From: a bacterium
GTDB lineage: Bacteria; Patescibacteriota; Dojkabacteria; JAKAPS01; JAJZLI01
NCBI GenBank assembly: GCA_021810605.1
Contig: JAJZIL010000001.1
Coordinates: 67,412 to 131,411 of the forward strand
Direction of reading: 5' to 3'
Length of the DNA: 64,000 bases
Positions 29,200 through 60,493 of this stretch are shown here, in pieces (position 1 is the first letter of the stretch; every line of letters starts with the position of its first letter). The notes beneath the pieces are model-generated. The model was not told the DNA's origin and made no database searches. It saw only the letters and a program-made list of their open reading frames with translations. The translations under genes and the position numbers were made by a program.

Positions 29200-29205
29200 A
29201 CTACA

Positions 29206-31123: not shown

Positions 31124-31602
31124 TTAGTTAAATATTCAGTCTCTGAGTAAGAAAAATTTTCTCCAAATGAGTTGAAGGATACATTTGCAGTAACTTCCAT
31201 AGAATTTGTATCAATTGGTTGTGTGGTATCTGTTGTAAATGTATTGGAATTTGATCTATATGCTGGAGCAATTACAACATCAACAGTATACTCATTATAT
31301 GTTTCTGATCCTGGAACAAGTTCCCATCCTTGTACTATGTGGGGTGTAGCATTCGTTGGATTATATTGAAGATAATATTCTCCTGCAACAAGATTTGACC
31401 ATGATTGATTCTGTACTGCATAAAGACTCTCTATTTGTTGTTGTAGTAAATATTTTGCTTCTAATTTTTGTTTTGATATTTCTATCGATTTATATACTAG
31501 TTGTACTGAAAAAAGGGAAGATCCAAAAATTATAGCTATAATAGTTATAGTCAAAAGTAATTCAATAAATGCTTGTCCTTTATTATTAATATACTGCTCC
31601 AT
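31108..31602 (-). CDS. pseudopilin (prepilin-type N-terminus)
   Basis: NNKGQAFIELLLTITIIAIIFG (G|QAFIE plus helix). Confidence 0.65.
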   Translation of the reverse strand: MEQYINNKGQAFIELLLTITIIAIIFGSSLFSVQLVYKSIEISKQKLEAKYLLQQQIESLYAVQNQSWSNLVAGEYYLQYNPTNATPHIVQGWELVPGSETYNEYTVDVVIAPAYRSNSNTFTTDTTQPIDTNSMEVTANVSFNSFGENFSYSETEYLTNWQSF

Positions 31603-32053
31603 TATTATTTATATTCATTAATATAAAATAACTTGAGTTTCCTATATCAAAGGATACTCCAGAGTTAGTAAGTTGTCCATTTACAGAGTTAAATATAATT
31701 GGATTATTTTCTGAAGGGGTAAGATTATAAAGTGTTACCTCAGGAGGAAAATAATATGTATCATTAGCACTATTAGTAGAAGAATAGTTGTTTCCAGGAA
31801 ATAGGGTAATTTGATTAGTTTGGAATTCTATTCCATACTGACTAAATCCTGCAAGATTATCAAGTGCATCATCTTGAGCTTCTTTTATCATTGAATATAC
31901 GTTTTGATTTGCACTATCTACATTTGTATGGGTAAGTAATGTCAGATAAGAGAATCCTATGAGCAATGACATTATACCTAGTATTGTTATTACTATTAAA
32001 ATCTCTATGAGTGTAAATCCTTTATTTTGCTGGTGCATTTCCTCCTGCTCCAC
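31586..32053 (-). CDS. pseudopilin / minor pilin (canonical GFTLIE motif)
   Basis: QNKGFTLIEILIVITILGIMSLL. Confidence 0.75.
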   Translation of the reverse strand: MEQEEMHQQNKGFTLIEILIVITILGIMSLLIGFSYLTLLTHTNVDSANQNVYSMIKEAQDDALDNLAGFSQYGIEFQTNQITLFPGNNYSSTNSANDTYYFPPEVTLYNLTPSENNPIIFNSVNGQLTNSGVSFDIGNSSYFILMNINNNGAVY

Positions 32054-33278
32054 TTGCTGCGGAAGTCCCTGAAGTACTTCCGATACTTCCTGTCATCTGA
32101 TATATTGGTGCTATTACTGAGAGTGCTATCAAAAGGACTCCACCTCCCATAACAAATAACATTAAAGGTTCAATTATTACTGACAGATTTGCTAAAGTAT
32201 CATCTACTTGGTTTTGATAAAATTCTGCAACGGAAAGAAGCATTTCAGAAGTATTCCCAGTTTTATCTCCAACAGCAATCATTCTTGTAGCAAGATTAGG
32301 AAAAAGTTTTGGATATTTTGATAAAGTTGGAGATATTTGATCTCCTCTCTCTACACTAGCTCCTAACTCAATTATGATTTTTTTATATGCTTCATTTGAT
32401 ACAGTATCTTTTACAATAGTAATGGATTGATTTATAGGAATTCCACTTTTAAGAAGATTTCCTAATGTTCTTGAAAAATTTGTTACATTTATTTTTTTTA
32501 TAATCTCTCCTACTATTGGGATTTTTACGGAGATAACATTCCATGCATATTTTGCTTGTGGAAGTCTTAGAAGTGCTCTAAATACAAATATAAGGATAAT
32601 AATTAATATTAATACCTCTAATCCATAATGAGTAAGAATATTAGATAAATCTATCATTATTTGAGTAGGTAGAGGGAGAGATTCTCCACTTCCTTTAAAA
32701 AGACCACTTAACTGAGGGAATACAAAAATTATTAATCCTATTGAAACTATAAGCATTATGCTTACTATGATTGCAGGATACATCAAAGCTCCTATAACTT
32801 TTTTTCTTAAATCATAACTTTTTTGTACTTGATCTTTAATAAGAACTGTGTTTTCAGAAATAGTACCACTAGTCTCTCCAATTTCCATCATTTTTACTAT
32901 CAGTGGTGTAAAGATATAAGGATATTTTTTCATAGTATCAGAGAGCTTATTTCCAGATTCTACATTATATTTTAAATCTTCAATAACAGTTTTAAATACC
33001 TTGGTTTCTGCATCTTGTACAAGGGAGTCAAGTGTATCTGCTAGTGAGAGTCCTGCTGTAAGCATTTTTCCCATATGGTCAAAAAAAAGAAGCTTTTCTA
33101 CTAATTTTACCCTTCCCTTTGTTGCATTCTTTGTCTTATCTTTGCTCTCCTCAATTGAAAGAATTGTAAGATTTTCAGATCTGATGATCTCCATTGCTTC
33201 ATCTTTTCCAGATGCACTAACAGTACCTTTTTTAACATCTCCTTGTAGATCTGTAGCTTCATAAATAAATTCTGCCAT
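32022..33278 (-). CDS. pilC: type IV pilus platform protein PilC (GspF family)
   Basis: 418 aa; N-terminal MAEFIYEATDLQGDVKKGTVSASGKDEAMEIIRSENLTILSIEE typical of PilC/GspF; two repeated 3-TM modules. Confidence 0.85.
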   Translation of the reverse strand: MAEFIYEATDLQGDVKKGTVSASGKDEAMEIIRSENLTILSIEESKDKTKNATKGRVKLVEKLLFFDHMGKMLTAGLSLADTLDSLVQDAETKVFKTVIEDLKYNVESGNKLSDTMKKYPYIFTPLIVKMMEIGETSGTISENTVLIKDQVQKSYDLRKKVIGALMYPAIIVSIMLIVSIGLIIFVFPQLSGLFKGSGESLPLPTQIMIDLSNILTHYGLEVLILIIILIFVFRALLRLPQAKYAWNVISVKIPIVGEIIKKINVTNFSRTLGNLLKSGIPINQSITIVKDTVSNEAYKKIIIELGASVERGDQISPTLSKYPKLFPNLATRMIAVGDKTGNTSEMLLSVAEFYQNQVDDTLANLSVIIEPLMLFVMGGGVLLIALSVIAPIYQMTGSIGSTSGTSAASGAGGNAPAK

Positions 33279-33380
33279 ACTTAAAATATATAGATTTTAG
33301 CTTATAAAAGCAAGTTATTTTTATATGATTAGATGAGTTATAACTTTATGATTAACTCTTATGATATAATTTAAAATTAT

Positions 33381-34019
33381 ATGGATGAGCAAAGTATAGA
33401 GAATATACCAAAAGAGGTTCTGACTGAACAGTATAAACAACTTTTGATAGAGGTAGATTCACTCAAGAAGGATTTATCTGTTAGTCAAGTAAAATTAAAG
33501 GATAATTCTGTACAGATAGAAATTCTTTTAAGACAAATTGATAGGTTAAGACATGATGGAAAAATAGATAAAATGACAAATCTATTTAACAATAATTATC
33601 TTGAAGACAGCTCTGTTGTCTCTGAATTAGAGTCATTATCAAAGAATGGTATAGATTTTGGTATAATTTTTATAGATTTAAATGATCTTAAAAAAATAAA
33701 TGATTCAAAGGGACATAAAGAAGGAGATAAATATATAATTGAATCTTCTAAAGCATTAGTGGAAGTAATTTCTGCTAGAGATACAGTTGTAAGAAAGGGG
33801 GGAGATGAATTTGTAGTTATTGTAAGGCATATTAATTCAGAATATTTACCAAATATAGAAAATACAATTTTAGATAGAATAAAACTATCTTTTTCAGAAA
33901 AGGGTATTAGTGCATCTTTGGGTTTTGCATTATCTTCTGAATGTGGTCATAGTCTAAAGGATACAATAAATTTAGCAGATCAGAGGATGTATATTGTAAA
34001 AAAGGAAGCAAAAAAATAA
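33381..34019 (+). CDS. diguanylate cyclase (GGDEF domain) with N-terminal coiled coil, no sensor domain
   Basis: GIIFIDLNDLKKINDSKGHKEGD ... RKGGDEFVVIV (GGDEF motif present). Confidence 0.8.
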   Translation: MDEQSIENIPKEVLTEQYKQLLIEVDSLKKDLSVSQVKLKDNSVQIEILLRQIDRLRHDGKIDKMTNLFNNNYLEDSSVVSELESLSKNGIDFGIIFIDLNDLKKINDSKGHKEGDKYIIESSKALVEVISARDTVVRKGGDEFVVIVRHINSEYLPNIENTILDRIKLSFSEKGISASLGFALSSECGHSLKDTINLADQRMYIVKKEAKK

Positions 34020-34095
34020 ATATATAAAATACTATATTTGAAGATTTAAATAATTAACTTTATATTTCATATTACTCATAATATATATATGCTAT

Positions 34096-34118
34096 CTGTA
34101 ATAATAGTATTATTACAG
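34096..34118. repeat. perfect 23-bp palindrome CTGTAATAATA-G-TATTATTACAG between the GGDEF gene and ndh
   Basis: Seen directly; followed by aattttatc (possible weak terminator) and about 130 nt upstream of the ndh start (possible operator). Confidence 0.5.
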
Positions 34119-34249
34119 AATTTTATCTAGCAGGAATATCTATTCTAAATATCTAAATTAAATCTACTGTGATAGGAATAACTTCAAATTTGCATTGTAT
34201 TTATAATACTATCATAATAGATAAACATAAATATAAATATAGATATTTT

Positions 34250-35503
34250 ATGCAATTAGATAAGAAATTAAAGAAAATAAAAAGAGTAGTAATACTAGGT
34301 GCTGGTTTTGGTGGAGTGAATCTATATAGATCACTTCATAAATTAGTACATGGAGATAAAGATTGGGAATTTGTAATAATTTCTGATAATAATTATTTCC
34401 TTTTTACACCTCTTATCCATGAAGTTGCAACGGGGTCACTTTTCCCAGAAGATTTAGTTTTTCCAATAAGAGAGAATTTTTCATGCTGTGTAAGAGAGGT
34501 AATTGTAGATAAGGTTATATCAATTGATGCATATAAAAAAAATGTTATTCTTAAAAATGAAAAGATTTCTTTTGATTATTTAGTTATATCAACAGGTGCT
34601 TCTGTAAATTATTGGGGGATTGAAGGAGCTTTAGAAAATTCAATTCCTCTTTATGATATAAAAGATGCTATAAAATTAAAAAATAATCTTATTTCTGTTT
34701 TTGAAAAGGCTAATGAAGTTAAACAGAAGAGTATAAAAATAGTTATTGTTGGTGGAGGGGCTACTGGGATAGAGCTTGCTACAGAAATAGTGGAATTTGT
34801 GGAGAGAATGAAGCCATTTTATGAAAATCTGAAAATATTAGATACAAAGATAAAGGTTGAGATACTTAATTCTTCTACAAAATTTATCCCTAATTTCCCG
34901 GATAAAGTAAGAAAGAAAATATTATCTATTTTATCAAGAGAGGATAATGATCTTTCAATACTTCTAGATTCTAAAGTCATGAAAGTAGATAGTAGTAGTG
35001 TATATCTTTTAGATAAGAGGAAGTTAGATTATGATCTTCTAGTTTGGGCTGCGGGTGTAAAACCTAATACTCCAAAGATTAATATTGATAGTGTAAAAAC
35101 TGATGAAAGAATTAAAGTAGATAAATATTTTAATATTAAACCATTTAAAAATATATTTGCTATTGGAGATGTTGCTGATTTTAAGGATATTAACGGGAAC
35201 TCTCTACCTCAATTTGCTCAAATAGCAGAAGAAGAGGGTAAGATTTGTGCAGAAAATATATATAGGATATCTAAAAAACTATCACCTATATCTTTTGAGT
35301 ATAAAGGAAAAGGGTTGCTACTTTCATTAGGACGTAATAATGCTATAGTGTCTTTAAAAAATGTAATATTTACAGGAAAAACTGCTTGGATACTATGGAA
35401 ATTTATATATTTAGGGTTAATGTTTGGAAAAGGAACTAGATTAAGGGTATTTAGTCAATGGATTATAAATAGTTTATCTCCTAGGAATATCTCTAAGATT
35501 TAG
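34250..35503 (+). CDS. ndh: type II NADH dehydrogenase / FAD-dependent pyridine nucleotide-disulfide oxidoreductase
   Basis: Two Rossmann motifs VVILGAGFGG and IVIVGGGATGIELA; start placed at the internal Met (MQLDKK...) rather than the track start at 34169. Confidence 0.75.
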   Translation: MQLDKKLKKIKRVVILGAGFGGVNLYRSLHKLVHGDKDWEFVIISDNNYFLFTPLIHEVATGSLFPEDLVFPIRENFSCCVREVIVDKVISIDAYKKNVILKNEKISFDYLVISTGASVNYWGIEGALENSIPLYDIKDAIKLKNNLISVFEKANEVKQKSIKIVIVGGGATGIELATEIVEFVERMKPFYENLKILDTKIKVEILNSSTKFIPNFPDKVRKKILSILSREDNDLSILLDSKVMKVDSSSVYLLDKRKLDYDLLVWAAGVKPNTPKINIDSVKTDERIKVDKYFNIKPFKNIFAIGDVADFKDINGNSLPQFAQIAEEEGKICAENIYRISKKLSPISFEYKGKGLLLSLGRNNAIVSLKNVIFTGKTAWILWKFIYLGLMFGKGTRLRVFSQWIINSLSPRNISKI

Positions 35504-35614
35504 AGAAAATCTCAATATTATACACTTTAGTATAATAATTTGTACTCAATATTTTATGCTTTAATATTTAAATTTGGTTGCAAAATTTTATTACTTAGTG
35601 CACAATATAAGTAT

Positions 35615-37039
35615 ATGGATGATAATCTTATACGGAAAACACTAGATTTTTATAATCCATTTTGGAGAAATATTTTATCTATAGAAAATACACCATTATA
35701 TAGAAGGGATATATATGACAGTATATTTATATCAGTTAAAGAGATAAAACAGATAATTTCAATAACTGGACCAAGAAGAGTGGGAAAGACGACTATACTT
35801 CGTCAGATCATATTTGATCTAATTAAAGAGAATGATGTAAGTCCACTAGATATAATATATATATCAATGGATGATCCATATATATACTCTAATTCTTCAG
35901 ATCCAATTTTTTTTGATAGACTAATCGAAGTATATGAAAAATATATCTTAAGAGAAAAAATACAAAATAGAACTATATATTTCCTTATAGATGAGATTCA
36001 TAAATTTAAAGATTGGCAACTATTTTTAAAGAAATACTATGATAGAGGTATAAATATAAAATTTATTATATCAGGGTCAGTTGAACAGTCTATATTGGGA
36101 AAAAGTAAGGAATCTTTAGCAGGAAGAATCAAGAATTTTAAAGTATATACTTTTTCATTTTATGAGTATATATACTATAAACTTTCTTTTGATGATAAAG
36201 TCGATATACTGAAAAAAGAGAATATATTAAAGCTAATTTTAAAAATTCATGATTTAAAAAAGAATATTTTTATAAATCCACTAATTTTTTTTGCTGATCT
36301 AGACCAAATACTTCCAGATTTTATCTTTTATGAAGATGAAATATTTAGATACTTTTATGAATATCTAATTATAGGAGGATTTATAGAGAGTTGGAGTATT
36401 GATAGTAAGGATATGCAATATGAATATCTATATCAAACACAAATTGAAAAGGTATTGCTACAGGATATATATATATTAGAAGATATTAAAAATACAAAAA
36501 TTCTTGCAACTATGTTTTTTAAATTTTCTGAAAATTTTGCTTCAGAATTTAGTCTTAACTCATTAGTAAAAGATATTGGAGTACATAGAGATACAATTGA
36601 AAGATATATTACTCTTCTTAAAGATTCTAATTTGATTTTTTCACTTTCTAAATATGGAGAGAATGCTAGTAAAATATCTAATATTAAAATATTTTTAGTT
36701 GATATTGGTATAAGAAATAGTATATTAAAAATAAAAGAAGAAGAGATTGTAGGAAATAAGATATTATTTCTTAAATATATTGAAAACCTATCTTTACTTT
36801 CAATAATACGTTATTCAAATGCATTAGGTATAAACTACTATAGAGAAAGAGAGAAAGAAATTAATTTTATACTTAATTATTCTTCTGGTAATATTGCTAT
36901 AAACCTAGATAATATGAAGAAAAGTCTTTTTGATAAATTTAAATTTGATTATATATTTAATCTTATTGGAGAAACTCAGATAAAAAAGGATAGTAATATA
37001 ATATCAATACCATATATAATATTTCTTCTTTCTTTGTAA
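35615..37039 (+). CDS. AAA+ ATPase of the AAA_14/DUF4143 family
   Basis: Walker A ITGPRRVGKTT; Walker B FLIDEIH; architecture typical of DUF4143-containing ATPases; start placed at the internal Met (MDDNLIRK...). Confidence 0.65.
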   Translation: MDDNLIRKTLDFYNPFWRNILSIENTPLYRRDIYDSIFISVKEIKQIISITGPRRVGKTTILRQIIFDLIKENDVSPLDIIYISMDDPYIYSNSSDPIFFDRLIEVYEKYILREKIQNRTIYFLIDEIHKFKDWQLFLKKYYDRGINIKFIISGSVEQSILGKSKESLAGRIKNFKVYTFSFYEYIYYKLSFDDKVDILKKENILKLILKIHDLKKNIFINPLIFFADLDQILPDFIFYEDEIFRYFYEYLIIGGFIESWSIDSKDMQYEYLYQTQIEKVLLQDIYILEDIKNTKILATMFFKFSENFASEFSLNSLVKDIGVHRDTIERYITLLKDSNLIFSLSKYGENASKISNIKIFLVDIGIRNSILKIKEEEIVGNKILFLKYIENLSLLSIIRYSNALGINYYREREKEINFILNYSSGNIAINLDNMKKSLFDKFKFDYIFNLIGETQIKKDSNIISIPYIIFLLSL

Positions 37040-37074
37040 ATTATTTGAATAGAGCATACTTTCTTAATATAAAA

Positions 37075-38745
37075 TCACTCTTTTACTACTCTTAGTACCT
37101 CTTCTATTGATGTGAGTCCTTCAGATGCTTTTGCAAGGCCATCTTCTATCATAAGACTCATACCATTTGATTGAGCTATTTTTTGAATAACCTCTCCACT
37201 TTCTTTTTTTGTAATTAATTCTTTTATTTTATCGTTAATTTCTAATATCTCATATATACCAATCCTACCTTTATATCCATTATTACAGTATTCACAACCT
37301 ACTGCTTTATAATATTTATTATTTGTAACTTTTTTACCAACTCCTTTTTTTTCATATTGTTCAGAGAGGATACTTAACTCTTTTGCATCCATTTTATATT
37401 CTTTTTTACACGTATTACATAATTTTCTTACTAACCTTTGTGCAATAACAACATTAAGAGTTGAGGCTACAAGAAAAGATTCTACCTGCATATCTATAAG
37501 TCTAGGAATTGCCCCAGATGCATCATTGGTATGTAGAGTAGATAGAACTAAATGTCCAGTCATTGCAGCATTAATAGCTATGTCTGCAGTTTCATTATCT
37601 CTAATTTCTCCAACCATGATAATATCAGGGTCTTGTCTTAAAAAAGATCTTAATCCATTTGCAAAGGTCAGTCCAATGTTGGCAGAGACCTGAGTTTGGT
37701 TGACTCTAGGCATAGTATATTCAATTGGATCTTCAACTGTATTAATATTAACTTCTGGTGTATTTAGCTGAGATAATATAGTATAGAGAGTTGTACTTTT
37801 TCCTGATCCAGTAGGTCCTGTTACTAATATCATTCCAACAGTTCTTTTTATAGAATCTTTAATTTTTTCTAAATCTCCTCCTCTAAAACCAAGTGCTTCT
37901 AGATTATATGATTTAGCATTATCTTCTAAAAGTCTTGTTACTACAACCTCTCCAAAATATACAGGCATAGTAGATACTCTAAAAGATATCTCTTGGTCAT
38001 TAACTAGTGTTTTAAATCTTCCATCTTGAGGAAGTCTATGTTCATCAATTTTAAGGTTAGATAATATTTTAATTCTTGCAACAACTGCCTTATGTATATC
38101 TAATGAATATGTTGCTTGATCGTGTAGTATTCCATCTATTCTATATCTTATAACAGCTCTTTCCTCTAAAGGTTCTAGATGTATATCAGATGCACCCATT
38201 GTTTTTGCGTATTCTAATATAGTATTCGTAATATTAATTATAGGTAATGCCTCAGTATCTTCACTTTTTACATCTTTGGACTCTTTCTCATTTTTTTCTA
38301 TAATATTTTTTAATTCTTCTTTTATTGAAGTTTTATATAATTTTAATCCTTCAAAAAAAGATGTCTCTGTTATAAAGTAAGGATCAATTATATAACCAGT
38401 TCCTTTTTTTAGAAACTCTATTGTATTAATATCTCTTGGATTAGTCATTCCTATCTTTAAAGTAGATTCACTCTTATCAAATGCTATAATTTTTTTCTCA
38501 ATAGCAATTTTTTCTGGGATTATTTTTACTGTTTCAGGATTAATTGTTTTATGAATTAGCGATGTATGTGGGATTGAGTACTCTTTAGTAATCAAATTTC
38601 CTAATTCTTCCTCTGTTATAAGGTTACTACCTATGACTAATTCTTCAATAGAACTTGAAATTTGCTTAGATTTCTCTTCTAATTTCTCATACTCCTCTTT
38701 ACTGGTATAATTATTTTTTATAAGAAGTTCTTTGATATCCATCAC
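37075..38745 (-). CDS. pilB: type IV pilus assembly ATPase PilB (GspE family)
   Basis: Walker A VTGPTGSGKSTT, Walker B MVGEIRD, His box LVLSTLHTN, C-terminal tetracysteine CNTC...CEYC. Confidence 0.9.
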   Translation of the reverse strand: MMDIKELLIKNNYTSKEEYEKLEEKSKQISSSIEELVIGSNLITEEELGNLITKEYSIPHTSLIHKTINPETVKIIPEKIAIEKKIIAFDKSESTLKIGMTNPRDINTIEFLKKGTGYIIDPYFITETSFFEGLKLYKTSIKEELKNIIEKNEKESKDVKSEDTEALPIINITNTILEYAKTMGASDIHLEPLEERAVIRYRIDGILHDQATYSLDIHKAVVARIKILSNLKIDEHRLPQDGRFKTLVNDQEISFRVSTMPVYFGEVVVTRLLEDNAKSYNLEALGFRGGDLEKIKDSIKRTVGMILVTGPTGSGKSTTLYTILSQLNTPEVNINTVEDPIEYTMPRVNQTQVSANIGLTFANGLRSFLRQDPDIIMVGEIRDNETADIAINAAMTGHLVLSTLHTNDASGAIPRLIDMQVESFLVASTLNVVIAQRLVRKLCNTCKKEYKMDAKELSILSEQYEKKGVGKKVTNNKYYKAVGCEYCNNGYKGRIGIYEILEINDKIKELITKKESGEVIQKIAQSNGMSLMIEDGLAKASEGLTSIEEVLRVVKE

Positions 38746-41122: not shown

Positions 41123-43189
41123 ATGGAGAATACTGAAAATGCGCATGCAGTACCACAAAATATAATGAGTGTCGAGTTCAAATTGATAGGAGATTTGTCT
41201 TTGAAACAATTTGTTTTTATAGCTGTTCCTCTGACACTAGGTTTTATAATGTATGTTTTTCATGTAAATAATTATATAACAATTGTATTTACTGGTTTTT
41301 TACTTCTAATAGCACTATTTATAGATTTTGTTCCTGTAGATGATAGACCATTAGATGATTTAATAGTAAATTTTTTAATTGCAATTAAAAACCCAACACA
41401 AAGAGTTTGGAGAAAAAATCCAGAATTTCCAAATATACTTAAAATTCCTAAAATATTAATGCCACAAGAAAAAAAGGATAGTGAAATTGCTACATTTATG
41501 TATCAATCTCCAATAGATAGTAATCTTAATTCACCTTCATCTTCAGATGCTTCGAAATTTTTAGATCAAAGAGAGAAAATTCTTATTGATAATATAGATA
41601 AATTAAATGATTCTCTCAATTCTACACCATCTGGAAACTCAATGGTATCTCCTTCTATTAATAATAATATTCCTTCTTCAGGGATGAATATAAATCCTCC
41701 TTTTATAAATCCATCAGGGAATAATATTAATTCTAATAATCCTCAGAAAGATGAAGTTAATCAATCACAAAATGTAGGAATGGGAACTGGGAATACGAGT
41801 TCGAATATATCATCTCAAAATTTAGGGAATAATAATTCTCCATTTGTTAATAATATTGGAGTAGACCAAAATTTATCGAAATCATCCTCTTTTTCTAATA
41901 ACAATAGTGTAAATGTATTGGAACCTCTAAGAAAACCAGATCCAAAAGATTTCTATAAAAAGTCTTCTGAAGATAATATTGAACATCCTATAAACACTGC
42001 AGTTTTTAATACAGGAAGTATTCCTACAGTTGATCCTAATATTAATCCTCAGAATCCATTTAATTCTGGAGTAGGGAATATTAGTTCAAATTTTGTTCCT
42101 AATACTCCACCTATAACAAATCCTAATATGGGAGTACCTCAAATGAATATTCCAAAAGTAGATAAGAATTATATTAATCCTAATAACAACCCTCCTATAC
42201 AAAATGAAATTAATAACTTCTCTCAACAACCAAGTGTAAATTTGCCACCTATACAACCAGATACAAATATTTCTCAGGGGCAGAATACTGTTCAATCTCT
42301 AACTCAAACAACAGTATCTACTTCATTTGATAGTAATTTAAGTGAACCTCCTGATACTTCGAGTGTGTCAGTAGATACAAATGCTATTCCTCATTCTTAT
42401 GATTATCTATCTTCCTCACCTTCAGAGACTCCTAAAATAGATGAAAATATTGTTAGTCAAACTGTAAATACTAATAAAACTCTTGATCCAGATATTGATA
42501 TAAAAAAAATACTTGAGAAACTAGAAAAACTTGAGAAAGAAAATGATAAGTTAAAAAAACAAGTTGATGAGCAAAATGAAAAAATTGATATAGCTCAAGA
42601 AGTCATAGATCAAAAAAATAGACAAGATGAAATTAATGTATCTAACGTATCCTCGGAGACTCCTTCTCCAAGTCCACAAGATGATATTTCTAATACATTG
42701 GGTATTAATCCTGTATTTGAAAATAATTCTATTCAACCTAGTGTAGATACTACAATTTTAGATTCTAAGAATCAGAAGGAAATTCCTTCTGAAAATAACT
42801 TAAGTTCCTCTATGACTAATCTTACATCACAATCTAATGTATCTACTCAGAATCCAGAGACTACAAAGTCTTCTAAGCAAGAGAGTTTGAAGAAAGAAGA
42901 TATTTTAAAATACCTTCCAGATTTTGTCAGTAATCCGAATATAATCTCTGGTGTAGTTATGAAAAATACAGGGCAGATCCTTCCTGATACAGTAATAATA
43001 ATAAAAGATTCTTCACAAAAACCAGTTAGAGCTATTAAGACTAATCAATTAGGACAATTCTTTATTAGGACTCCTCTTTTGTCAGGAACGTATAATTTAG
43101 AAATTGCATATCAAGGTTTGACATTTGATCCTATCTTTATAGAACTTGATGATACTGTTAAGGATCCTATGTTAATTTATTCAAAATAA
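41123..43189 (+). CDS. PrgI/VirB3-like two-TM protein fused to a long low-complexity extracellular region, coiled coil and C-terminal CarboxypepD_reg-like beta-sandwich
   Basis: N-terminus VEFKLIGDLSLKQFVFIAVPLTLGFIMYVF plus second TM (PrgI-family pattern); about 400 aa N/S/P-rich; coiled coil ILEKLEKLEKENDKLKKQVDEQNEKIDIAQE; C-terminal ISGVVMKNTGQILPDTVIIIKD...GQFFIRTPLLSGTYNLEIAYQG. Confidence 0.5.
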   Translation: MENTENAHAVPQNIMSVEFKLIGDLSLKQFVFIAVPLTLGFIMYVFHVNNYITIVFTGFLLLIALFIDFVPVDDRPLDDLIVNFLIAIKNPTQRVWRKNPEFPNILKIPKILMPQEKKDSEIATFMYQSPIDSNLNSPSSSDASKFLDQREKILIDNIDKLNDSLNSTPSGNSMVSPSINNNIPSSGMNINPPFINPSGNNINSNNPQKDEVNQSQNVGMGTGNTSSNISSQNLGNNNSPFVNNIGVDQNLSKSSSFSNNNSVNVLEPLRKPDPKDFYKKSSEDNIEHPINTAVFNTGSIPTVDPNINPQNPFNSGVGNISSNFVPNTPPITNPNMGVPQMNIPKVDKNYINPNNNPPIQNEINNFSQQPSVNLPPIQPDTNISQGQNTVQSLTQTTVSTSFDSNLSEPPDTSSVSVDTNAIPHSYDYLSSSPSETPKIDENIVSQTVNTNKTLDPDIDIKKILEKLEKLEKENDKLKKQVDEQNEKIDIAQEVIDQKNRQDEINVSNVSSETPSPSPQDDISNTLGINPVFENNSIQPSVDTTILDSKNQKEIPSENNLSSSMTNLTSQSNVSTQNPETTKSSKQESLKKEDILKYLPDFVSNPNIISGVVMKNTGQILPDTVIIIKDSSQKPVRAIKTNQLGQFFIRTPLLSGTYNLEIAYQGLTFDPIFIELDDTVKDPMLIYSK

Positions 43190-43201
43190 GATTTAATAGT
43201 T

Positions 43202-43888
43202 ATGGCTTTATTTGGAAATTCAACACAAAATAATACTCCTATTGTAGCAACTACACAGGATCATCTTAATATATATGATATAAAGGATAATTTTTTAATA
43301 TTAAAGGATAAGAATGTATGTGTAGTAATTGAAACTTCTGCAGTAAATTTTTATCTATTATCTGAAGTAGAGCAGAATTCTAAAATATATGCTTTTGCAG
43401 GAATGCTTAATTCTCTTGGTTTTTATATACAGGTAATGATTCATACTGAAAATGTTGATATATCTTCATATCTTAAAAATATAGATGAATATAAGATAAA
43501 ACAGCAAGACCCTAAGATAAAATATCAAATTGATATATATAGAAAATTTGTTAAAGATCTTATTGTTAAAAATAATGTTTTAGATAAGCATTTTTATATT
43601 GTAATTCCATATCTAACACTTATGCCTAAAAAACCTAGTTTTACTAGTAAAATTTTTGGGAAAGAAGATTCTAATTTTGATGTTGACAGTATGATTTCAC
43701 AGTCATCTTCAAGACTTATTCCTAGAAGGGATCATGTTATAAGACAGCTTTCTAGAATGGGATTAAAATCCAAACAGCTTGAGAGTGCTGAACTTATAAA
43801 ACTTTTTTATAATATATATAATCCTATGAATGCTAAAATTAGAGAAGGTTTTGATGAATATACTAGTCCTATTGTAACTTATAAATAA
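43202..43888 (+). CDS. VirB4 N-terminal-segment-like protein (probable first part of a split Gram-positive-type VirB4)
   Basis: IYDIKDNFLILKDKNVCVVIETSAVNFYLLSEVEQNSKIYAFAGMLNSLGFYIQVMIHTENVDISSYL follows the pattern recalled for the extreme N-terminus of PrgJ/TcpF/TraE-type VirB4 ATPases; stops 2 nt before the next ORF in another frame. Confidence 0.4.
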   Translation: MALFGNSTQNNTPIVATTQDHLNIYDIKDNFLILKDKNVCVVIETSAVNFYLLSEVEQNSKIYAFAGMLNSLGFYIQVMIHTENVDISSYLKNIDEYKIKQQDPKIKYQIDIYRKFVKDLIVKNNVLDKHFYIVIPYLTLMPKKPSFTSKIFGKEDSNFDVDSMISQSSSRLIPRRDHVIRQLSRMGLKSKQLESAELIKLFYNIYNPMNAKIREGFDEYTSPIVTYK

Positions 43889-43890
43889 AT

Positions 43891-46401
43891 ATGAAAATAC
43901 CTTTTAATCTTTTAAAAAATAATGATAATAATCAGACAAATAATGTAGTTCAGGGGTCTATCGATAATCCTGTGATTGAAGGGAATCCTAATTATAAGAA
44001 TACAGATCCAGTTTCTTCTTTTGGTATGGGGATAAATTCAATTAAGGATATTATTGCTCCCCCTTCAATAGAGGTTGATTTCTCTCATATAAAAATAGGT
44101 GAGAAATTTTATAGAACATATTTTGTATTAGCATACCCTAGATATGTTGTTCCAAATTGGCTTTCTCCTCTTATCACATTTGAGCATTCAATTGATATAA
44201 GTATGTTTTATTATCCTATTAATGCTGCAGCTGTAATAACTAAACTTAGAAATAAGATTGCTGAGATGGAAGCTTCTACAAATAATCTAATAGAATCTGG
44301 AAAGGTGATGGATCCTAATTTGAAAGTTGCTTTATCAGATGCGAAGGAATTACAAGAAAATTTAGCAAAAGGAGCGGAGAGATACTTTCATTTTGCATTA
44401 TATGTGACAGTAAGGGCTGGTAGTCAAAATGAGTTAGAAGATATTTCTAAAAATTTAGAGTCTACAATGGGTGCAATGTCACTTATTATAAAACCATCAA
44501 CACTTCAGATGGAAGAAGGTTTTTTATCAACACTTCCTTCAGCAAGTGACAAGCTCTATTATACACATAATATGGATACAACATCCATTGCAACAACTTT
44601 TCCTTTTGTATCCTCTGAGCTTACTTCTGATAGAGGTGTACTATATGGTATTAATAAAGCCAATAAAAGTTTAGTAGTATTTGATCGATTTGAATTAGAA
44701 AATGCTAATTCAGTTATTTTTGCAAAGTCAGGTGCAGGAAAAAGTTATTTAGTAAAGTTAGAGGCATTAAGATCTTTAATGTTAGGAACACAGATAATAA
44801 TAGTGGATCCAGAGAGTGAGTATGAACAGTTATGTAAATCTTTAAATGGTGTGTATATAACATTTTCTCAAGATACTGGATCTAAGATAAATCCTTTTGA
44901 TCTATCAGGTGTTTATGAAGAAGGTGAAGATGAATTAAGGTTTAAAATTCTTTCTCTACATGGTCTTTTTAAAGTTATGTTAGGTGAAGATGGAGGAATT
45001 AGTAGTATGGAAAATGCTATTTTAGACAAAGCTTTGATTTTGACATATCGAGATAAAGGCATAACATTTGATCCTGATACACAAACAAAACAACCACCAT
45101 TAATGGAAGATCTATATAAGATTCTTCAATCAATGGAAGAGCAAGAAGCACATTCTTTAGCACAAAGGTTAGAAAAATATGTTAAAGGTTCTGCTTCTGG
45201 AATTTTTGATCAACAGACAAATGTAAATTTAGATAATGACTTTATTGTTTTTTCAATAAAAGATCTTTCAGATGAATTAAGGCCAGTATCTATGTATTTA
45301 ATGTTAGATTTTATATGGACTAGGGTAAAGAAAGAGCTTAGGAGAAGGATTTTTATAATAGATGAAGCCTGGCTTTTAATGAAGTATCCAGATTCAGCAG
45401 AGTTTGTTTATGCAGTAGCAAAAAGAGCAAGGAAATATTATCTTGGACTGACAACTATTTCTCAGGATGTAGATGATTTTCTTTCTAGTGATTATGGAAA
45501 AGCTGTAGTGACTAACTCTTCAATACAGATATTATTGAGACAGTCTCCAACTGCAATGGATCATTTAGCAGAAGTATTTTATCTTTCTGCAGGGGAGAAA
45601 AATTTATTGCTTAGTGCGGAAGTAGGAGAAGGAATATTTTTTGTTGGAGCTAATCATGTGGCAATCCAGGTTCTTTCATCTGAATATGAAAATACTCTTA
45701 TAACAACAAATCCTGAAGAAATATTAAAAATGAGGAGAAGTCAGTCATCTTTAGACAGAATTGTTCCTAATAATGCAATGAATGAGAACTCTAAAGTGTA
45801 CACTGTAAATAATCCAAAAATAGTAGTAAATATGTCTCAAAATAAGTCTAATACAATATCTGATACAGAAGAAAATACAAATTTAAATCCTTTAGAGAAT
45901 GAGAATGTATTATTTGATGATAGTACAGCTCAAGATACTAATAATACAGCTCCAAATATTAATAATTTTGATCTGTCTGGTGATACTGCAGATAATTCTA
46001 GTGCTATTCAAACTCAAAATGAATTTATTGATACTACAGAAAATTTAAATATTCCTCCTGTAGATAATAATTCTAATCCAATTATTACTCAAAATATGGA
46101 GGAAAACGTTTCTAGTACTAATGATCAAATACCTAATCCTAATTTAGGACAAAGTATTAATGCAGTTCCAGATTTTAACACAAGTACTCAAAGTGATAAT
46201 GGTGTAGATATTCCAACTGAATCTATTCCAGATACTGTAGATATTTCATCTACAAATAGACCTAATGTTAATCCTATTACTCAAGATGCTCAAAAAAATC
46301 AGGTAGAAAGCTCTTATGATACAATAGATACCAATTTAGGAACAACATATTCATTTAAGAATTTTACCCAAGAGAATCCTGTGAATAATTCTCCTCAATA
46401 A
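43891..46401 (+). CDS. VirB4/TraC/PrgJ-like type IV secretion ATPase with about 230-aa low-complexity C-terminal tail
   Basis: N-domain FSHIKIGEKFYRTYFVLAYPRYVVPNWLSPLITFEHSIDISMFYYP; Walker A FAKSGAGKSY; Walker B IFIIDEAWLL; RKYYLGLTTISQDVDDF; tail rich in N/T/S/P/D. Confidence 0.8.
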   Translation: MKIPFNLLKNNDNNQTNNVVQGSIDNPVIEGNPNYKNTDPVSSFGMGINSIKDIIAPPSIEVDFSHIKIGEKFYRTYFVLAYPRYVVPNWLSPLITFEHSIDISMFYYPINAAAVITKLRNKIAEMEASTNNLIESGKVMDPNLKVALSDAKELQENLAKGAERYFHFALYVTVRAGSQNELEDISKNLESTMGAMSLIIKPSTLQMEEGFLSTLPSASDKLYYTHNMDTTSIATTFPFVSSELTSDRGVLYGINKANKSLVVFDRFELENANSVIFAKSGAGKSYLVKLEALRSLMLGTQIIIVDPESEYEQLCKSLNGVYITFSQDTGSKINPFDLSGVYEEGEDELRFKILSLHGLFKVMLGEDGGISSMENAILDKALILTYRDKGITFDPDTQTKQPPLMEDLYKILQSMEEQEAHSLAQRLEKYVKGSASGIFDQQTNVNLDNDFIVFSIKDLSDELRPVSMYLMLDFIWTRVKKELRRRIFIIDEAWLLMKYPDSAEFVYAVAKRARKYYLGLTTISQDVDDFLSSDYGKAVVTNSSIQILLRQSPTAMDHLAEVFYLSAGEKNLLLSAEVGEGIFFVGANHVAIQVLSSEYENTLITTNPEEILKMRRSQSSLDRIVPNNAMNENSKVYTVNNPKIVVNMSQNKSNTISDTEENTNLNPLENENVLFDDSTAQDTNNTAPNINNFDLSGDTADNSSAIQTQNEFIDTTENLNIPPVDNNSNPIITQNMEENVSSTNDQIPNPNLGQSINAVPDFNTSTQSDNGVDIPTESIPDTVDISSTNRPNVNPITQDAQKNQVESSYDTIDTNLGTTYSFKNFTQENPVNNSPQ

Positions 46402-46421: not shown

Positions 46422-47153
46422 TTATGATATAAGTTTTGCTTTAACAATAAAACGTTGTGTTCCTATACCTGGAGGGATACAAGTCATAAGAGTAAGATAT
46501 CTTTTTCCTGGAGGATATTGTAATACAGATATATCATTAGGTGATACTACTTGTGTTTGAAATACCTCATATGTATAATTTTCTCCTTTGAATTTAGCAA
46601 ATATTTTATCACCAATTTTAAGTTGTAATATATTCGTAAATATTCCTAAAAAAGATGACGGATATAAATCTGCAAACCATTGTGGGGCAGAGTGCCCATA
46701 AATATATACATTTCCAACCTGTCCTGGAAGGGCAGTTCCCTTCATTTGAGCAAGTGAATTAACTAGAATTTTTTCATATGCATTTGTATTAAATCCATCA
46801 ACTTCAGATTTTACAGGAACATTATTAAGGTTTATGGTAGGAATAGATATATGGAAATAACCTGTATAGGTGTTATTTTTTTGAAAATTTTCTGCTTGTA
46901 TAATTTGTGAAAAATATGAAGCATTTGGATCTGCATTTACTATTTTTGTTTGGTATTGGTGGAATATATTCTGATCTATATAATAGTTGATTATGGGAGA
47001 GATAGCTATTATGACAAAAAACCCACCTACAAAAATTAGAAACATAGCACCATAATTAAATCTTTTTTTTGCTACTCTTGTTCTTTTTCTAGCATTTAAC
47101 TTAATTTTTGGAGGCTTATTATTAATCTTTTTTACATACATATATCTGGACAT
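46422..47153 (-). CDS. sortase family transpeptidase
   Basis: N-terminal TM, conserved His (IYGHSAPQWF), catalytic Cys in LTLMTCIPP (TLxTC) and downstream Arg (QRFIVKAKL). Confidence 0.7.
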   Translation of the reverse strand: MSRYMYVKKINNKPPKIKLNARKRTRVAKKRFNYGAMFLIFVGGFFVIIAISPIINYYIDQNIFHQYQTKIVNADPNASYFSQIIQAENFQKNNTYTGYFHISIPTINLNNVPVKSEVDGFNTNAYEKILVNSLAQMKGTALPGQVGNVYIYGHSAPQWFADLYPSSFLGIFTNILQLKIGDKIFAKFKGENYTYEVFQTQVVSPNDISVLQYPPGKRYLTLMTCIPPGIGTQRFIVKAKLIS

Positions 47154-48441: not shown

Positions 48442-48987
48442 TTAGATGTTTTGTAATGTAGTTATAGTTTTTATTATTTGAAAATCCTCTCTAAGGACAG
48501 ACTTCATATTAGGATTATATAATCCTACTGCTGGATGATAAAGTGGAATAATTTTATATTTTCCATATTTAAAAACTTTGCCATGTATTTGAGATATTTT
48601 TCTATCTTTTAGGAATAATGAAGTAGAATATCTTCCGAGGGTACATATAAGAATAGGGTCAATTAATTTTATTTGTATTTTTAAATAAGGGGAACAGGCA
48701 TTGATCTCATCTTCTTTAGGATCCCTATTTTGAGGTGGTCTACATTTTACTATATTTGTAATAAATATATCTTCTCTTTTAAGATTTATACTTTCTAACA
48801 ACTCATCAAGAATTTTTCCTGACCTTCCACAAAAAGGTATTCCTTCTCTATCCTCATTCTCTCCTGGAGCTTCTCCTATAAAGAATATTTTAGAGTGAAT
48901 ATTACCTTCTCCTGGTACTGCATTTTTTCTATCTTTGCATAAGTTACACTTATTGCAGTTAATAATTTCTTTTCTTATCTTATCCAT
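48442..48987 (-). CDS. uracil-DNA glycosylase, family 4
   Basis: CNKCNLC ... GEGN ... IFFIGEAPGENED ... GIPFCGRSGKILDELL is the family-4 UDG motif set. Confidence 0.85.
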   Translation of the reverse strand: MDKIRKEIINCNKCNLCKDRKNAVPGEGNIHSKIFFIGEAPGENEDREGIPFCGRSGKILDELLESINLKREDIFITNIVKCRPPQNRDPKEDEINACSPYLKIQIKLIDPILICTLGRYSTSLFLKDRKISQIHGKVFKYGKYKIIPLYHPAVGLYNPNMKSVLREDFQIIKTITTLQNI

Positions 48988-50015
48988 TAATATCCAATAG
49001 GTAAGAATAGTTTTAAATTATCTTTATTGATCTCTACTAAATCTATCTTTTCAAGTAGAATCTTTTTAGCAACTCTTCTTCCAATATTCATAAGAACTCT
49101 CTCAAGTTCTCTTATTCCTGCCTCATATCCGAGAGGCCTTATTATATCAGCCCATATATCATCATCTATTTTTATTTGACTCTCAGATAACCCAATTTGT
49201 TTATATACCTTAGGCATTATAAAATCTTTAGCTATTTTTAATTTTTCATCATCTGAGTATGAAGAAAATCGTATAATTTCTAGCCTATCAAGTAGAGCTG
49301 ATGATATAGTTCCTAGATTATTTGCAGTTAGTATAAACATTACTTTTGATAGATCAATTGGAAAATCTATGTAATGATCTATAAATGATGAATTTTGTTC
49401 AGGATCTAATATCTCTAAAAATGTTGCCATTATAGCAGATCGGACACTTCCTTCATCTGAAATTTTATCAAATTCATCTAAGAGTATTACAGGATTCATA
49501 CTTCCAGCTCTAGCTATAGCTTTAATAATATATCCAGGTTCTGCATCTGGATTAACCTTTGACTGCCCTCTAATTTCTAATACTGAAGATATTCCGCCAA
49601 GAGCTATTCGTACAAAATTCCTATTTAGTGCTTCAGCGATTGATTTTGCAATTGTAGTTTTTCCAATCCCTTGTAATCCTACAAAACATAAAACTGGAGC
49701 AGGCTGATCTTTGTTAAAATTCATTGATGCAAGGTATTCTAGAACTCTCTCTTTGACATCATTCATTCCATAATGGTTTTTATCTAGAATTGATTTAGCA
49801 TTAGAAATATCTAAATTATCAGTAGTAATTGTATTCCAAGGAATTTGAGTGATCGTATCTATATATTTAGAAGCAACTTCATAGTCCGATGAATAGCTTT
49901 TAAATTTAGACATTCTCTCTAGTCTTCTTAATATTATTTCTGTATTTTCTTTAAGTGTATCTGGGAGAAAGTTATCTGTAACCTTATCTTTTAAATTCTG
50001 TATATCATCTGTCAT
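48987..50015 (-). CDS. Lon-like AAA+ ATPase module lacking both the N-terminal LON domain and the S16 protease domain
   Basis: Collinear with Lon residues about 250-600: YIDTITQIPWN ... HYGMNDVKERVLEYLA; Walker A GLQGIGKTT; LLDEFDK; ILDPEQNSSFIDHYIDFPIDLSKVMFILTAN; LLDRLEIIRFSSYSDDEKLKIAK. ORF ends right after the AAA module. Confidence 0.8.
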   Translation of the reverse strand: MTDDIQNLKDKVTDNFLPDTLKENTEIILRRLERMSKFKSYSSDYEVASKYIDTITQIPWNTITTDNLDISNAKSILDKNHYGMNDVKERVLEYLASMNFNKDQPAPVLCFVGLQGIGKTTIAKSIAEALNRNFVRIALGGISSVLEIRGQSKVNPDAEPGYIIKAIARAGSMNPVILLDEFDKISDEGSVRSAIMATFLEILDPEQNSSFIDHYIDFPIDLSKVMFILTANNLGTISSALLDRLEIIRFSSYSDDEKLKIAKDFIMPKVYKQIGLSESQIKIDDDIWADIIRPLGYEAGIRELERVLMNIGRRVAKKILLEKIDLVEINKDNLKLFLPIGY

Positions 50016-57053: not shown

Positions 57054-58019
57054 TTAAGGTGCACAACTCCACCTCCATATCTGTTTTTCAGATATTAATT
57101 TAGCCATTTCAGCTATTTGAGCATAAGGATTTCCAATTCCATAGGATATATAAGGGTTTATTTTTTTGTTATAAAAGGTATTCGGCATAAACTGAGCTAT
57201 TCCATAAGCCCCAGATGACTGTGAATTTGGTATTTCAGGTTCAAACTGACTTTCACATTTAATTATATTTACCATTATTGATGAACTTACCTTATAATAA
57301 GAAGCAGCCTTATTTATGAAATATATATATGCACTCTCTCCTACAGGATATCTTGATGTGGTATTAGGAATACTTAATATATTTCCCAAATTTTTAGAAA
57401 TACTATTTTTTGTTGATTGTTCAAAATTAATATTTAGTACTTTCTGAGCATAAGGTATAGATAGAAGATCAATATTACTTATTTCTTTTGGATTGATTTT
57501 ATCTGTATCTATTTCTATTGATTCTCGATCTGCAATGCTCTCCATTATTGGAACCACATCCATATTTAGGGTAGTATCAATTATATTATTTTTATGTGAA
57601 TAAAAATTTTTTCCAACTGTGTTAGCTTGTGATTCAATATATATTCCAAAAGTTCCAGGAATTGATATTAATGTTGCAAATACTAGACTACTTACTCCAT
57701 GCTCTTTTACAAAAGCTCGAATTTTATTCCTAATAGATACTCTATCAGATTTAGTAAGGTTACTTCCAACAGCTTTATCATGAATTCTATCTAAAGAATC
57801 TTTTATAGTATTTGTTGGACTAGTTTCCAGATTGTGAACTGCACAAAAAAAGGCATAAAGTGTCTCATTACTGAGGACTCCTTCTTCAGCAGCTGAGGAT
57901 ACTCTTCTTGTAGAAAGCGATAATAAATCTATTTCGTCTGCTACAAGATGATTACCCTCCATGACAACAGTGAACTCATCTTGAGTATCACCGTGTTCGA
58001 AAGTTTTTCTTTCGATCAT
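57054..58019 (-). CDS. lytic transglycosylase (SLT domain) protein
   Basis: C-terminal CESQFEPEIPNSQSSGAYGIAQFMPNTF = SLT catalytic E-S ... G-(L/I)-(M/A)-Q motif. Confidence 0.65.
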   Translation of the reverse strand: MIERKTFEHGDTQDEFTVVMEGNHLVADEIDLLSLSTRRVSSAAEEGVLSNETLYAFFCAVHNLETSPTNTIKDSLDRIHDKAVGSNLTKSDRVSIRNKIRAFVKEHGVSSLVFATLISIPGTFGIYIESQANTVGKNFYSHKNNIIDTTLNMDVVPIMESIADRESIEIDTDKINPKEISNIDLLSIPYAQKVLNINFEQSTKNSISKNLGNILSIPNTTSRYPVGESAYIYFINKAASYYKVSSSIMVNIIKCESQFEPEIPNSQSSGAYGIAQFMPNTFYNKKINPYISYGIGNPYAQIAEMAKLISEKQIWRWSCAP

Positions 58020-59604: not shown

Positions 59605-59630
59605 AGTTTCGAGTGTTATATTAAATATAT

Positions 59631-60491: not shown

Positions 60492-60493
60492 TT

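Follow-up and report, generated by a model that had tools for sequence, protein, structure and literature searches.

Is a virB4 gene that is divided between two open reading frames (ORFs) a damaged gene, or can two separate genes be the normal way to encode this ATPase? The question is raised by a locus in a 64,000-nucleotide stretch of dojkabacterial DNA (hereafter the window; 27.5% G+C), where an ORF for a 228-amino-acid protein (ORF1) is followed after only 2 nucleotides, in a different reading frame, by an ORF for an 836-amino-acid protein (ORF2). An earlier note had placed both ORFs correctly, had recognized them as the beginning and the rest of a VirB4 homolog, and had proposed either a genuine two-subunit VirB4 or a frameshifted gene. 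Gene callers and readers are indeed prone to flag such a locus as a broken virB4. We assign a probability of about 0.9 to the view that it is a genuine and conserved arrangement of a TrsD-like gene and a virB4 gene, as found in the known type IV secretion systems (T4SSs) of Patescibacteria. The locus is the core of such a chromosomal T4SS and forms a three-gene cassette encoding a VirB3/PrgI-like anchor, a TrsD-like protein and the VirB4 ATPase. Its features are as follows.

41123–43189, + strand: VirB3/PrgI-like membrane anchor, 688 amino acids, first gene of the cassette
43202–43888, + strand: TrsD-like ORF1, 228 amino acids, soluble and without a transmembrane segment; corresponds to the first subdomain of the N-terminal domain of VirB4, detached from the remainder
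43886–43893, + strand: junction, consisting of the TAA stop codon of the TrsD-like gene, 2 nucleotides and the ATG of virB4
43891–46401, + strand: ORF2, VirB4, 836 amino acids
43891–44040, + strand: N-terminal extension of VirB4 (residues 1–50), opening with the conserved sequence MKIPF and continuing as a variable, N-rich linker
44041–45735, + strand: VirB4 core (residues 51–615), comprising DIIAPPSIEVDF as junction motif, then the N-terminal domain's second half and a RecA-like ATPase domain
45736–46401, + strand: C-terminal tail of ORF2 (residues 616–836) and stop codon, placed by composition and by alignment with relatives

The downstream gene encodes a VirB4-type ATPase without the start of its N-terminal domain

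Judged by its sequence, ORF2 is unambiguously a VirB4-type ATPase. It scores 400.1 bits (cut-off 325) against the NCBIfam model conju_CD1110 ('VirB4-like conjugal transfer ATPase, CD1110 family'), over positions 186–733 of 752, and it matches positions 271–893 of the 894 in the NCBIfam model VirB4_plasma. Clear matches are also obtained to Pfam P-loop_TraG (E = 1.4e-29; 103.5 bits, cut-off 25.8) and to the solved VirB4 C-terminal domain in PDB entry 4ag5 (E = 2.8e-51). The protein thus combines a RecA-like P-loop domain, both Walker motifs and scores above the cut-offs of curated models, as a VirB4/TraC-type T4SS ATPase should. The motifs that the earlier note had listed are all present: FYRTYF at residues 73–78, YPRY at residues 82–85, the Walker A sequence SGAGKS at residues 280–285 (44728–44745) and the Walker B sequence IFIIDEAW at residues 487–494 (45349–45372). 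The ATPase core extends to about residue 615 (ITTNPEEILKM).

What ORF2 does not have is a full N-terminal domain on the same polypeptide. Its alignment begins at residue 186 of a fused VirB4 from Carboxydocella and at residue 221 of PrgJ (aligned residues 221–773), such that the first ~220 residues of PrgJ have no counterpart in ORF2. The missing part is encoded by ORF1. A similar division is visible in the Pfam model TraC_F_IV, of which ORF2 matches positions 274–373 and some homologs of ORF1 match approximately positions 57–210.

In place of the missing part, ORF2 carries a short extension of its own. Residues 1–50 are without counterpart in the fused Carboxydocella protein and have pLDDT values (a per-residue confidence score) below 50 in an AlphaFold2 (AF2) model. 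A comparable segment is common in the family, with a median of 48 amino acids preceding the core among ORF2 homologs (n = 120). The MK(I/L)PF start is kept in close relatives, and starts resembling M-x-L/I-P-F are common in distant ones.

The upstream gene encodes the missing portion

Several comparisons link ORF1 to the N-terminal portion of VirB4. ORF1 matches positions 103–233 of VirB4_plasma (E = 3e-9), just ahead of the positions matched by ORF2. The same order is seen with the fused, 754-amino-acid VirB4 of the Carboxydocella plasmid pCCELLA01 (Bacillota), to which ORF1 residues 15–225 align at residues 8–193 (E = 4e-20) and ORF2 residues 53–614 align at residues 186–750 (E = 1e-63). By these alignments the two ORFs are colinear with, and complementary to, a single-chain VirB4, and nothing but the initial ~50 residues and the tail of ORF2 is left unmatched.

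ORF1 also resembles TrsD, a named family. It matches positions 14–105 of 201 in the TrsD/TraD model NF041427 (E = 1.8e-5), and a profile of the ORF1 family aligns with TrsD of plasmid pSK41 by hhalign with a probability of 94.9% (E = 4e-8; columns 10–202 against residues 32–217 of 227). Thus, ORF1 has both attributes of a TrsD: it is homologous to the N-terminal portion of VirB4, and it lies directly upstream of a VirB4 that is devoid of that portion. The corresponding Pfam family, PF26593 ('TraC-like'), is present on ORF1 as a precomputed match classed as faint and is unmarked on most homologs; a Pfam scan with a release older than PF26593 gave no match to ORF1. The earlier note missed this named family, TrsD/TraD, as well as the published norm of a split VirB4 in Patescibacteria. 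It had instead linked ORF1 to an N-terminal motif of PrgJ/TcpF-type VirB4 proteins. This resemblance did not hold up: the family profile has a weak match at the expected place in PrgJ (residues 64–107) that is not significant by hhalign (probability 0.4%, E = 0.14), and ORF1 has no match to the TcpF model.

The predicted fold of ORF1 leads to the same family of proteins. In a Foldseek search of the PDB with the AF2 model of ORF1 (pLDDT 79.7), the top 14 matches are all TrwK/VirB4 of the R388 T4SS (probability ~1.0, E ~1e-3, ~185 columns, template modeling (TM) score 0.40–0.42), and the matches that follow are unrelated, with probabilities below 0.35. Sequence searches of solved structures yielded nothing, with either the single sequence (best E = 0.29, to an unrelated protein) or the family profile, and therefore the link between ORF1 and solved VirB4 structures comes from fold comparison only. 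When ORF1 was concatenated with residues 1–617 of ORF2 for AF2 modeling, each part folded, residues 221–292 formed a disordered linker, and the model aligned over the full length of TrwK/VirB4 (875–916 columns, E = 2.5e-21). This model was built as a single chain from an unpaired alignment, and we do not use it as evidence that ORF1 and ORF2 interact.

Each of the two proteins carries a short motif at the point where they part. In ORF1, the sequence YTSPIV (43859–43876) represents a conserved Y-x-T/S-P-I/L-V motif that follows the core of TrsD-like proteins. It resembles the A-P-P-x-I-E-V junction motif that opens the VirB4 core, which in ORF2 lies in DIIAPPSIEVDF (44047–44082). In the fused Carboxydocella VirB4 the junction motif is present once (TPGVIEI), and both ORFs align to this copy. 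The paired motifs may be the trace of a short duplication at the point of fission, or may be a coincidence.

The split is conserved and under selection

If the division of virB4 were an artifact or a pseudogene, it should trace to a sequencing or assembly indel, or to a recent frameshift, in the A/T-rich run at 43880–43893. The local sequence leaves room for this explanation. ORF1 ends with TAA at 43886–43888 and the ATG of ORF2 begins at 43891 after the spacer AT; the surrounding sequence, ATAAATAAATATG, is A/T-rich. A 1-nucleotide insertion at 43885/43886 would fuse the two frames. The room is narrow, since the reading frame of ORF2 contains a stop of its own at 43882–43884, as read from the sequence, so that fusion is possible only through a 1-nucleotide insertion at exactly this position.

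Comparison with other genomes speaks strongly against such an error. At least 23 contigs encode an identical ORF1 protein; four of them, from four different European Nucleotide Archive (ENA) samples, agree in their flanking genes and in the arrangement of 228 and 836 amino acids. More broadly, a search of 5.8 billion proteins returned 278 homologs of ORF1, the best 120 of which are all stand-alone proteins of 204–397 amino acids. Their named sources are few (Gottesmanbacteria, Microgenomates and unclassified bacteria). A profile of the family retrieves 3,899 cluster representatives (50% identity) at E ≤ 1e-3 and 2,004 at E ≤ 1e-10. The 120 best homologs of ORF2 are mostly 600–700 amino acids long, and none contains an ORF1-like domain detectable by hmmsearch with the ORF1 family profile (E ≤ 10).

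The earlier note had suggested examining whether orthologs in related genomes are fused or split. We compared 80 loci from 80 species-representative genomes, which include WWE3, Gottesman-, Woyke-, Beckwith-, Woese- and Dojkabacteria as well as unclassified or evidently mislabeled metagenome-assembled genomes (MAGs). An ORF1-like gene is followed by a VirB4-core ORF on the same strand in all 80. Junction statistics were taken from 78 of these loci, leaving aside L030 and L073, whose ORF1 ends are spurious products of ORF extension. All 78 have a stop between the ORF1-like gene and virB4. The relative frame varies and is the same in 16 of the 78; the gap between the genes is –4 to +6 nucleotides in 51 loci and –35 to +25 nucleotides in 70. 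Varying frames combined with tight gaps form the pattern expected of translationally coupled genes, rather than that of one inherited indel. The tight spacing of ORF1 and ORF2 themselves is, on inspection of the sequence, typical of genes that are coupled in this manner.

Both parts are also maintained by selection. Ratios of nonsynonymous to synonymous substitution rates (dN/dS, by the Nei-Gojobori method) were calculated between the window and its relatives L098, L096 and L094, with L099 added for the tail. The values for ORF1 are 0.03, 0.07 and 0.11, respectively, and those for the ORF2 core are 0.01, 0.03 and 0.04. ORF1 and the core of ORF2 are thus under strong purifying selection.

A fused form does exist. 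Among the 150 best representatives of the family, a single protein (P0286) joins the two domains, which shows that fusion is viable. This 787-amino-acid protein of patescibacterial type has a TrsD-like domain at residues 3–209 that is joined without a linker to a VirB4 core starting at residue 213 and 58% identical to ORF2. Either a rare re-fusion in nature or an artifact of sequencing or gene calling could account for it. Regardless, the recurrence of the identical ORF1 on many contigs, the differing frames, overlaps and gaps among 78 uniformly split loci, the low dN/dS of ORF1, the stop within the ORF2 frame and an identical split point in pSK41 (see below) make an artifact or pseudogene so improbable that it can nearly be disregarded. 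Of the two possibilities raised by the earlier note, the genuine split therefore stands, whereas the frameshift or sequencing error does not.

A subtler possibility is that the genes are separate and that a fused protein is nevertheless also made, through programmed ribosomal frameshifting or stop-codon bypass. The gap of only 2 nucleotides and the A-rich sequence around the stop would be compatible with this. The 78 loci share no common geometry at the junction: ATGA overlaps, gaps of 1–6 nucleotides, and same as well as different frames all occur, as in simple translational coupling. No conserved slippery motif was seen by eye in the printed junctions, for which no formal motif search was run. 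Finally, the conserved MK(I/L)PF start of ORF2 argues for independent initiation. We consider frameshifting or bypass very improbable, and retain two separately translated genes as the interpretation of the junction.

Many of the MAGs that bear the cassette (L018, L025, L029, L037, L068 and others) are titled 'uncultured Gammaproteobacteria', 'Pseudomonadales', 'Nevskiaceae' or 'Bathyarchaeia archaeon'. These are probably mislabeled or chimeric bins.

The cassette corresponds to a known patescibacterial secretion system

The separation of a TrsD-like protein from VirB4 is the usual and already published arrangement in Patescibacteria, also called candidate phyla radiation (CPR) bacteria, and the tail of ORF2 is a small extra. 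In a recent survey, TrsD was found to be the most abundant T4SS component of this phylum, with 2,272 homologs, 1,664 of them in association with virB4 (Quiñonero-Coronel et al., 2025; PMC12102498). The same survey reports remote homology of TrsD to the N terminus of VirB4, adjacent VirB3/PrgI genes, a general absence of relaxases and a frequent location near dnaA (PMC12102498). The window locus shares these characteristics. Its gene order is VirB3/PrgI-like, TrsD homolog, virB4; it is chromosomal and near dnaA; neither a relaxase nor a coupling protein was found nearby; and its VirB4 is of the monoderm mating-pair formation (MPF) type MPF-FATA (CD1110 family). In other words, among the ORFs scanned we find an MPF-FATA VirB4 with adjacent TrsD and VirB3/PrgI, on a chromosome near dnaA and without a relaxase, which is the description of the patescibacterial system.

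The locus also differs from the published systems in some respects. No VirB2-like pilin array, VirB6 gene or VirB1 gene was found to adjoin virB4 among the window ORFs scanned. Moreover, the VirB3-like protein is extended by a long spacer plus a CarboxypepD_reg-like domain, and VirB4 by a 221-amino-acid tail; a term search of the survey found no mention of such extensions (PMC12102498).

The same split occurs on Gram-positive plasmids of the pGO1 type, for which it is likewise the normal two-gene architecture. In pSK41, a 135-amino-acid gene in the TrsC position is followed by trsD (227 amino acids) and by a 672-amino-acid DUF87/VirB4 ATPase that we take as TraE. Residues 53–594 of ORF2 align to residues 36–617 of TraE (E = 6e-45), and because ORF2 residue 53 corresponds to TraE residue 36, the split point in pSK41 is the same. 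The TrsD/TraD and TrsE/TraE pairs of pGO1 and pSK41 therefore match the window in having a soluble protein of ~227 amino acids directly upstream of a VirB4-type ATPase of ~670 amino acids. They differ in that ORF1 is only about 19% identical to TrsD and that TraE is without a long tail. In addition, genes for a relaxase, a VirD4-like coupling protein and a TrbL/VirB6-like protein are carried by pSK41, which is truly conjugative, and none of the three was found at the window locus. Further split versions are present on a Pontibacillus plasmid, where a 274-amino-acid protein precedes a 621-amino-acid CD1110 VirB4, and on a Clostridium sporogenes plasmid, where PrgI is followed by a 257-amino-acid 'TraC family protein'.

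Single-chain VirB4 proteins, such as PrgJ of pCF10, TrwK of R388, the Carboxydocella protein and the T. pseudethanolicus protein of 4ag5, provide the reference for what has been divided. ORF1 and ORF2 cover the whole chain of these proteins colinearly, the ATPase domain is clearly homologous, and the predicted fold of ORF1 matches TrwK. The window differs from them by the use of two polypeptides, by the variable linker of ~50 amino acids at the new N terminus of VirB4, and by the 221-amino-acid tail.

Some observations weigh against our reading of the locus. The score of ORF1 against NF041427 is 24.7 bits, far below the curated cut-off of 200, which signifies a remote relationship. The concatenated AF2 model has a predicted TM score (pTM) of 0.46 and, relative to TrwK, a TM score of 0.35 and a root-mean-square deviation of ~20 Å, so that its placement of domains is unreliable. 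Moreover, VirB6, VirB8, pilin and coupling-protein genes were not found among the window ORFs scanned. These family scans covered ORFs of at least 200 amino acids and the smaller uracil-DNA glycosylase (UDG) ORF at 48442–48987, with the exception of four ORFs at 58336–63138 and a Lon-like ATPase at 48987–50015; some of the ORFs outside the scans are covered only by precomputed matches in near-identical loci. According to the survey, VirB6 is scarce or rarely detectable in Microgenomatia (PMC12102498).

Relative to published surveys, our analysis adds the exact complementarity of the two proteins to a fused VirB4, the common split point with pSK41, the presence of the split in every scorable locus, the rarity of fusions (1/150), and the common occurrence of fast-evolving tails.

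How two polypeptides might act as one ATPase

In solved Gram-negative systems, the N-terminal domains of VirB4 link each dimer's protomers, are embedded in the membrane and make contacts with VirB3 and VirB8 (PMC12857230). We hypothesize that non-covalent binding of the TrsD-like protein to the shortened VirB4 supplies the first N-terminal subdomain in trans. Through the rebuilt domain, the ATPase ring would then dock onto the VirB3-like anchor that is encoded just upstream, and ATP hydrolysis by the VirB4 ring would drive T4SS assembly or transport. A detachable subdomain could permit regulated assembly or a different stoichiometry. We regard the association of the TrsD-like protein with VirB4 to rebuild the N-terminal domain, which is an inferred step, as somewhat favored.

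Alternatively, the TrsD-like protein might share ancestry with the N terminus of VirB4 and yet act as an independent factor, for example as an assembly chaperone, as a regulator that competes for the VirB3 anchor, or as a substrate adaptor. Consistent with this, the TrsD homologs of Gracilibacteria are not associated with virB4 (PMC12102498), many members of the family have long disordered C-terminal tails with an LPPLPEI-like end, as would be expected of an adaptor, and AF2 modeling gave no confident docking of ORF1 on ORF2. An independent factor would not readily explain why gene order and tight spacing are strictly kept in all 78 scorable loci, why the halves complement a fused VirB4 exactly, leaving neither overlap nor gap (apart from a short junction motif that is possibly duplicated), or why the 120 ORF2 homologs never carry a copy of the ORF1 domain of their own. 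On balance, an independent role for the TrsD-like protein is unlikely, and reassembly of a two-part VirB4 remains the interpretation that we favor.

In this phylum, T4SSs are thought to serve an epibiotic lifestyle rather than conjugation. A conjugative system would have a relaxase and a VirD4/TcpA coupling protein together with its mating-pair genes, and both are carried by pSK41 and by pCF10. Among the scanned ORFs of the 64-kb window, no relaxase, integrase, VirD4 or second VirB4 was found, and this combination is accordingly missing from them. The survey lists the TrsD homolog of Ca. Southlakia epibionticum as essential, citing Wang et al. (2023) (PMC12102498). Should epibiotic growth depend centrally on the patescibacterial T4SS, as is suggested by one genetic study, the roles of a detachable VirB4 subdomain and of the tails described below become questions in their own right.

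Probably disordered extensions of the cassette proteins

The second unusual characteristic of ORF2 is the tail of 221 amino acids (residues 616–836) that follows its ATPase domain. The tail is poor in hydrophobic residues, net acidic and dominated by a few residue types (N 19%, S 11%, T 11%, D 9%, I 7%, P 7%, Q 6%), and it is probably disordered. The earlier note had called such a tail atypical for VirB4 ATPases. This is correct with regard to length, since the 120 best ORF2 homologs extend beyond the core by a median of 27 amino acids, but the tail is not unique, because the maximum among them is 401 amino acids and tails of 100–400 amino acids recur in several lineages. As judged from these sequences, the tail is a recurrent and variable feature of the clade.

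Conservation within the tail is confined to its ends. The sequence SSLDRIVPNN (residues 619–628), just past the ATPase domain, is conserved in close relatives. The terminal sequence NLGTTYSF (residues 815–822) is conserved in the four closest relatives as S(Y/F)D..(I/L)D.N(L/V)G(T/S)TYSF, its conservation being limited to this clade. The ~190 residues between the two motifs are hypervariable and rich in indels. In the comparison of the window with strain L098, identity is 99% in the core and 48% in the tail, where there are 18 gap columns. The dN/dS of the tail is 0.55 against L098, 0.52 against L099, 0.72 against L096 and 0.73 against L094, which is similar to the values for the low-complexity spacer of the VirB3-like gene (0.41–0.56).

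Could the tail simply be functionless, a side effect of replication slippage and of an extreme bias towards A+T, akin to the Asn-rich low-complexity expansions of other A+T-rich genomes? The low G+C content of the window, the high dN/dS of the tail with its many indels, and the short or absent tails of most homologs would all fit. So would the spacer of the VirB3-like gene, which is alike in composition (N 16%, S 15%, P 9%) and evolves at a similar rate. On the other hand, the frame of the tail remains open for 221 codons, for which the chance at this base composition is ~4e-9, and the other five frames contain 10–41 stops. Long tails recur in several lineages, the end motifs are kept in close relatives while the middle is not, and dN/dS is still below 1. 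A functionless tail is therefore a real possibility, though not one that we consider probable. The sequence data suggest that the tail is translated and that its length and openness are kept while its sequence is almost free to drift, as in a weakly constrained extension. Most likely it is a flexible spacer or the carrier of a short terminal docking motif.

The VirB3-like protein has a comparable design. Two N-terminal transmembrane segments (about residues 27–74) are followed by an N/S/P-rich spacer of ~480 amino acids with a coiled-coil stretch, and then by a C-terminal CarboxypepD_reg-like beta-sandwich. Its Pfam matches, to PrgI (E = 2e-4, residues 10–85) and to CarboxypepD_reg (E = 1e-5, residues 608–665), are both below the gathering score; the upstream genes of relatives match PF12666 PrgI. 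In 66 of the 80 species loci, the same N- and C-terminal modules are encoded upstream of the TrsD-like gene, with a very variable spacer and a total length of 279–957 amino acids. Relative to L098, dN/dS is 0.02 for the N terminus, 0.47 for the spacer and 0.07 for the C-terminal domain. With two transmembrane segments, the extension and the N terminus would share one side of the membrane. Few VirB3 homologs have been reported next to virB4 in Microgenomatia (PMC12102498), and long forms such as this may have been missed by the 2025 survey.

Tails are also frequent in the TrsD-like family. Most of its 150 best representatives are much longer than the 228 amino acids of ORF1, with 64 of 261–400 amino acids and 53 above 400. 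All of the 36 longest representatives that we inspected (>450 amino acids), apart from the fused P0286, have low-complexity C-terminal tails rich in P, Q, T, S, N and A, and many of the long tails end in a conserved LPPLPEI(K) or LPPIAEI. We considered whether proteins ending in LPPLPEI reflect a shifted split point that takes in the junction strand of VirB4. This was rejected for the one example, L101 (4001–5455), in which VirB4 keeps its own DIIAPEAIEVDF. By this comparison LPPLPEI appears to be a separate terminal motif in L101.

It is tempting to see the hypervariable tails, with the NLGTTYSF end of VirB4, the LPPLPEI end of TrsD-like proteins and the spacer of the VirB3-like protein, as a modular recruitment system that replaces the missing coupling protein. 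We regard this as distinctly unlikely. If it were true, the terminal motifs of these flexible arms would bind partners or substrates, and their fast divergence would track host- or substrate-specific adaptation of epibionts.

Genomic surroundings

The cassette is surrounded by housekeeping genes and by genes for type IV pili. The following features of the window are of interest in this regard.

1573–2916: dnaA; together with dnaN it spans 1573–4369, ~40 kb from the cassette
26821–38745: type IV pilus gene set, 2–16 kb upstream of the T4SS cassette
26821–28419: PilM/PilN fusion
30605–32053: three small overlapping ORFs, possible pilins
32022–33278: PilC/T2SSF
33381–34019: GGDEF diguanylate cyclase, among the pilus genes
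35540–37039: AAA_14/DUF4143 ATPase, among the pilus genes
37075–38745: PilB-like T2SSE ATPase
46422–47153, – strand: sortase gene, convergent with virB4 and 20 nucleotides downstream of it
57054–58019, – strand: protein with an SLT lytic-transglycosylase domain, 11 kb from virB4

In the relative L094/L095 (9205–12687; TrsD-like protein 80% identical), a second T4SS module directly follows virB4. It encodes a TrbC/VirB2-like pilin (80 amino acids), proteins of 310 and 95 amino acids, a second TrsD-like protein (174 amino acids) and a second VirB4, which is again split. Searches of the window by tblastn for the pilin-module genes of L094 and for a second VirB4 found none. The sortase gene is kept in the close relatives L001–L004 and L096–L099, and the SLT-domain protein could be the VirB1-like hydrolase of the system.

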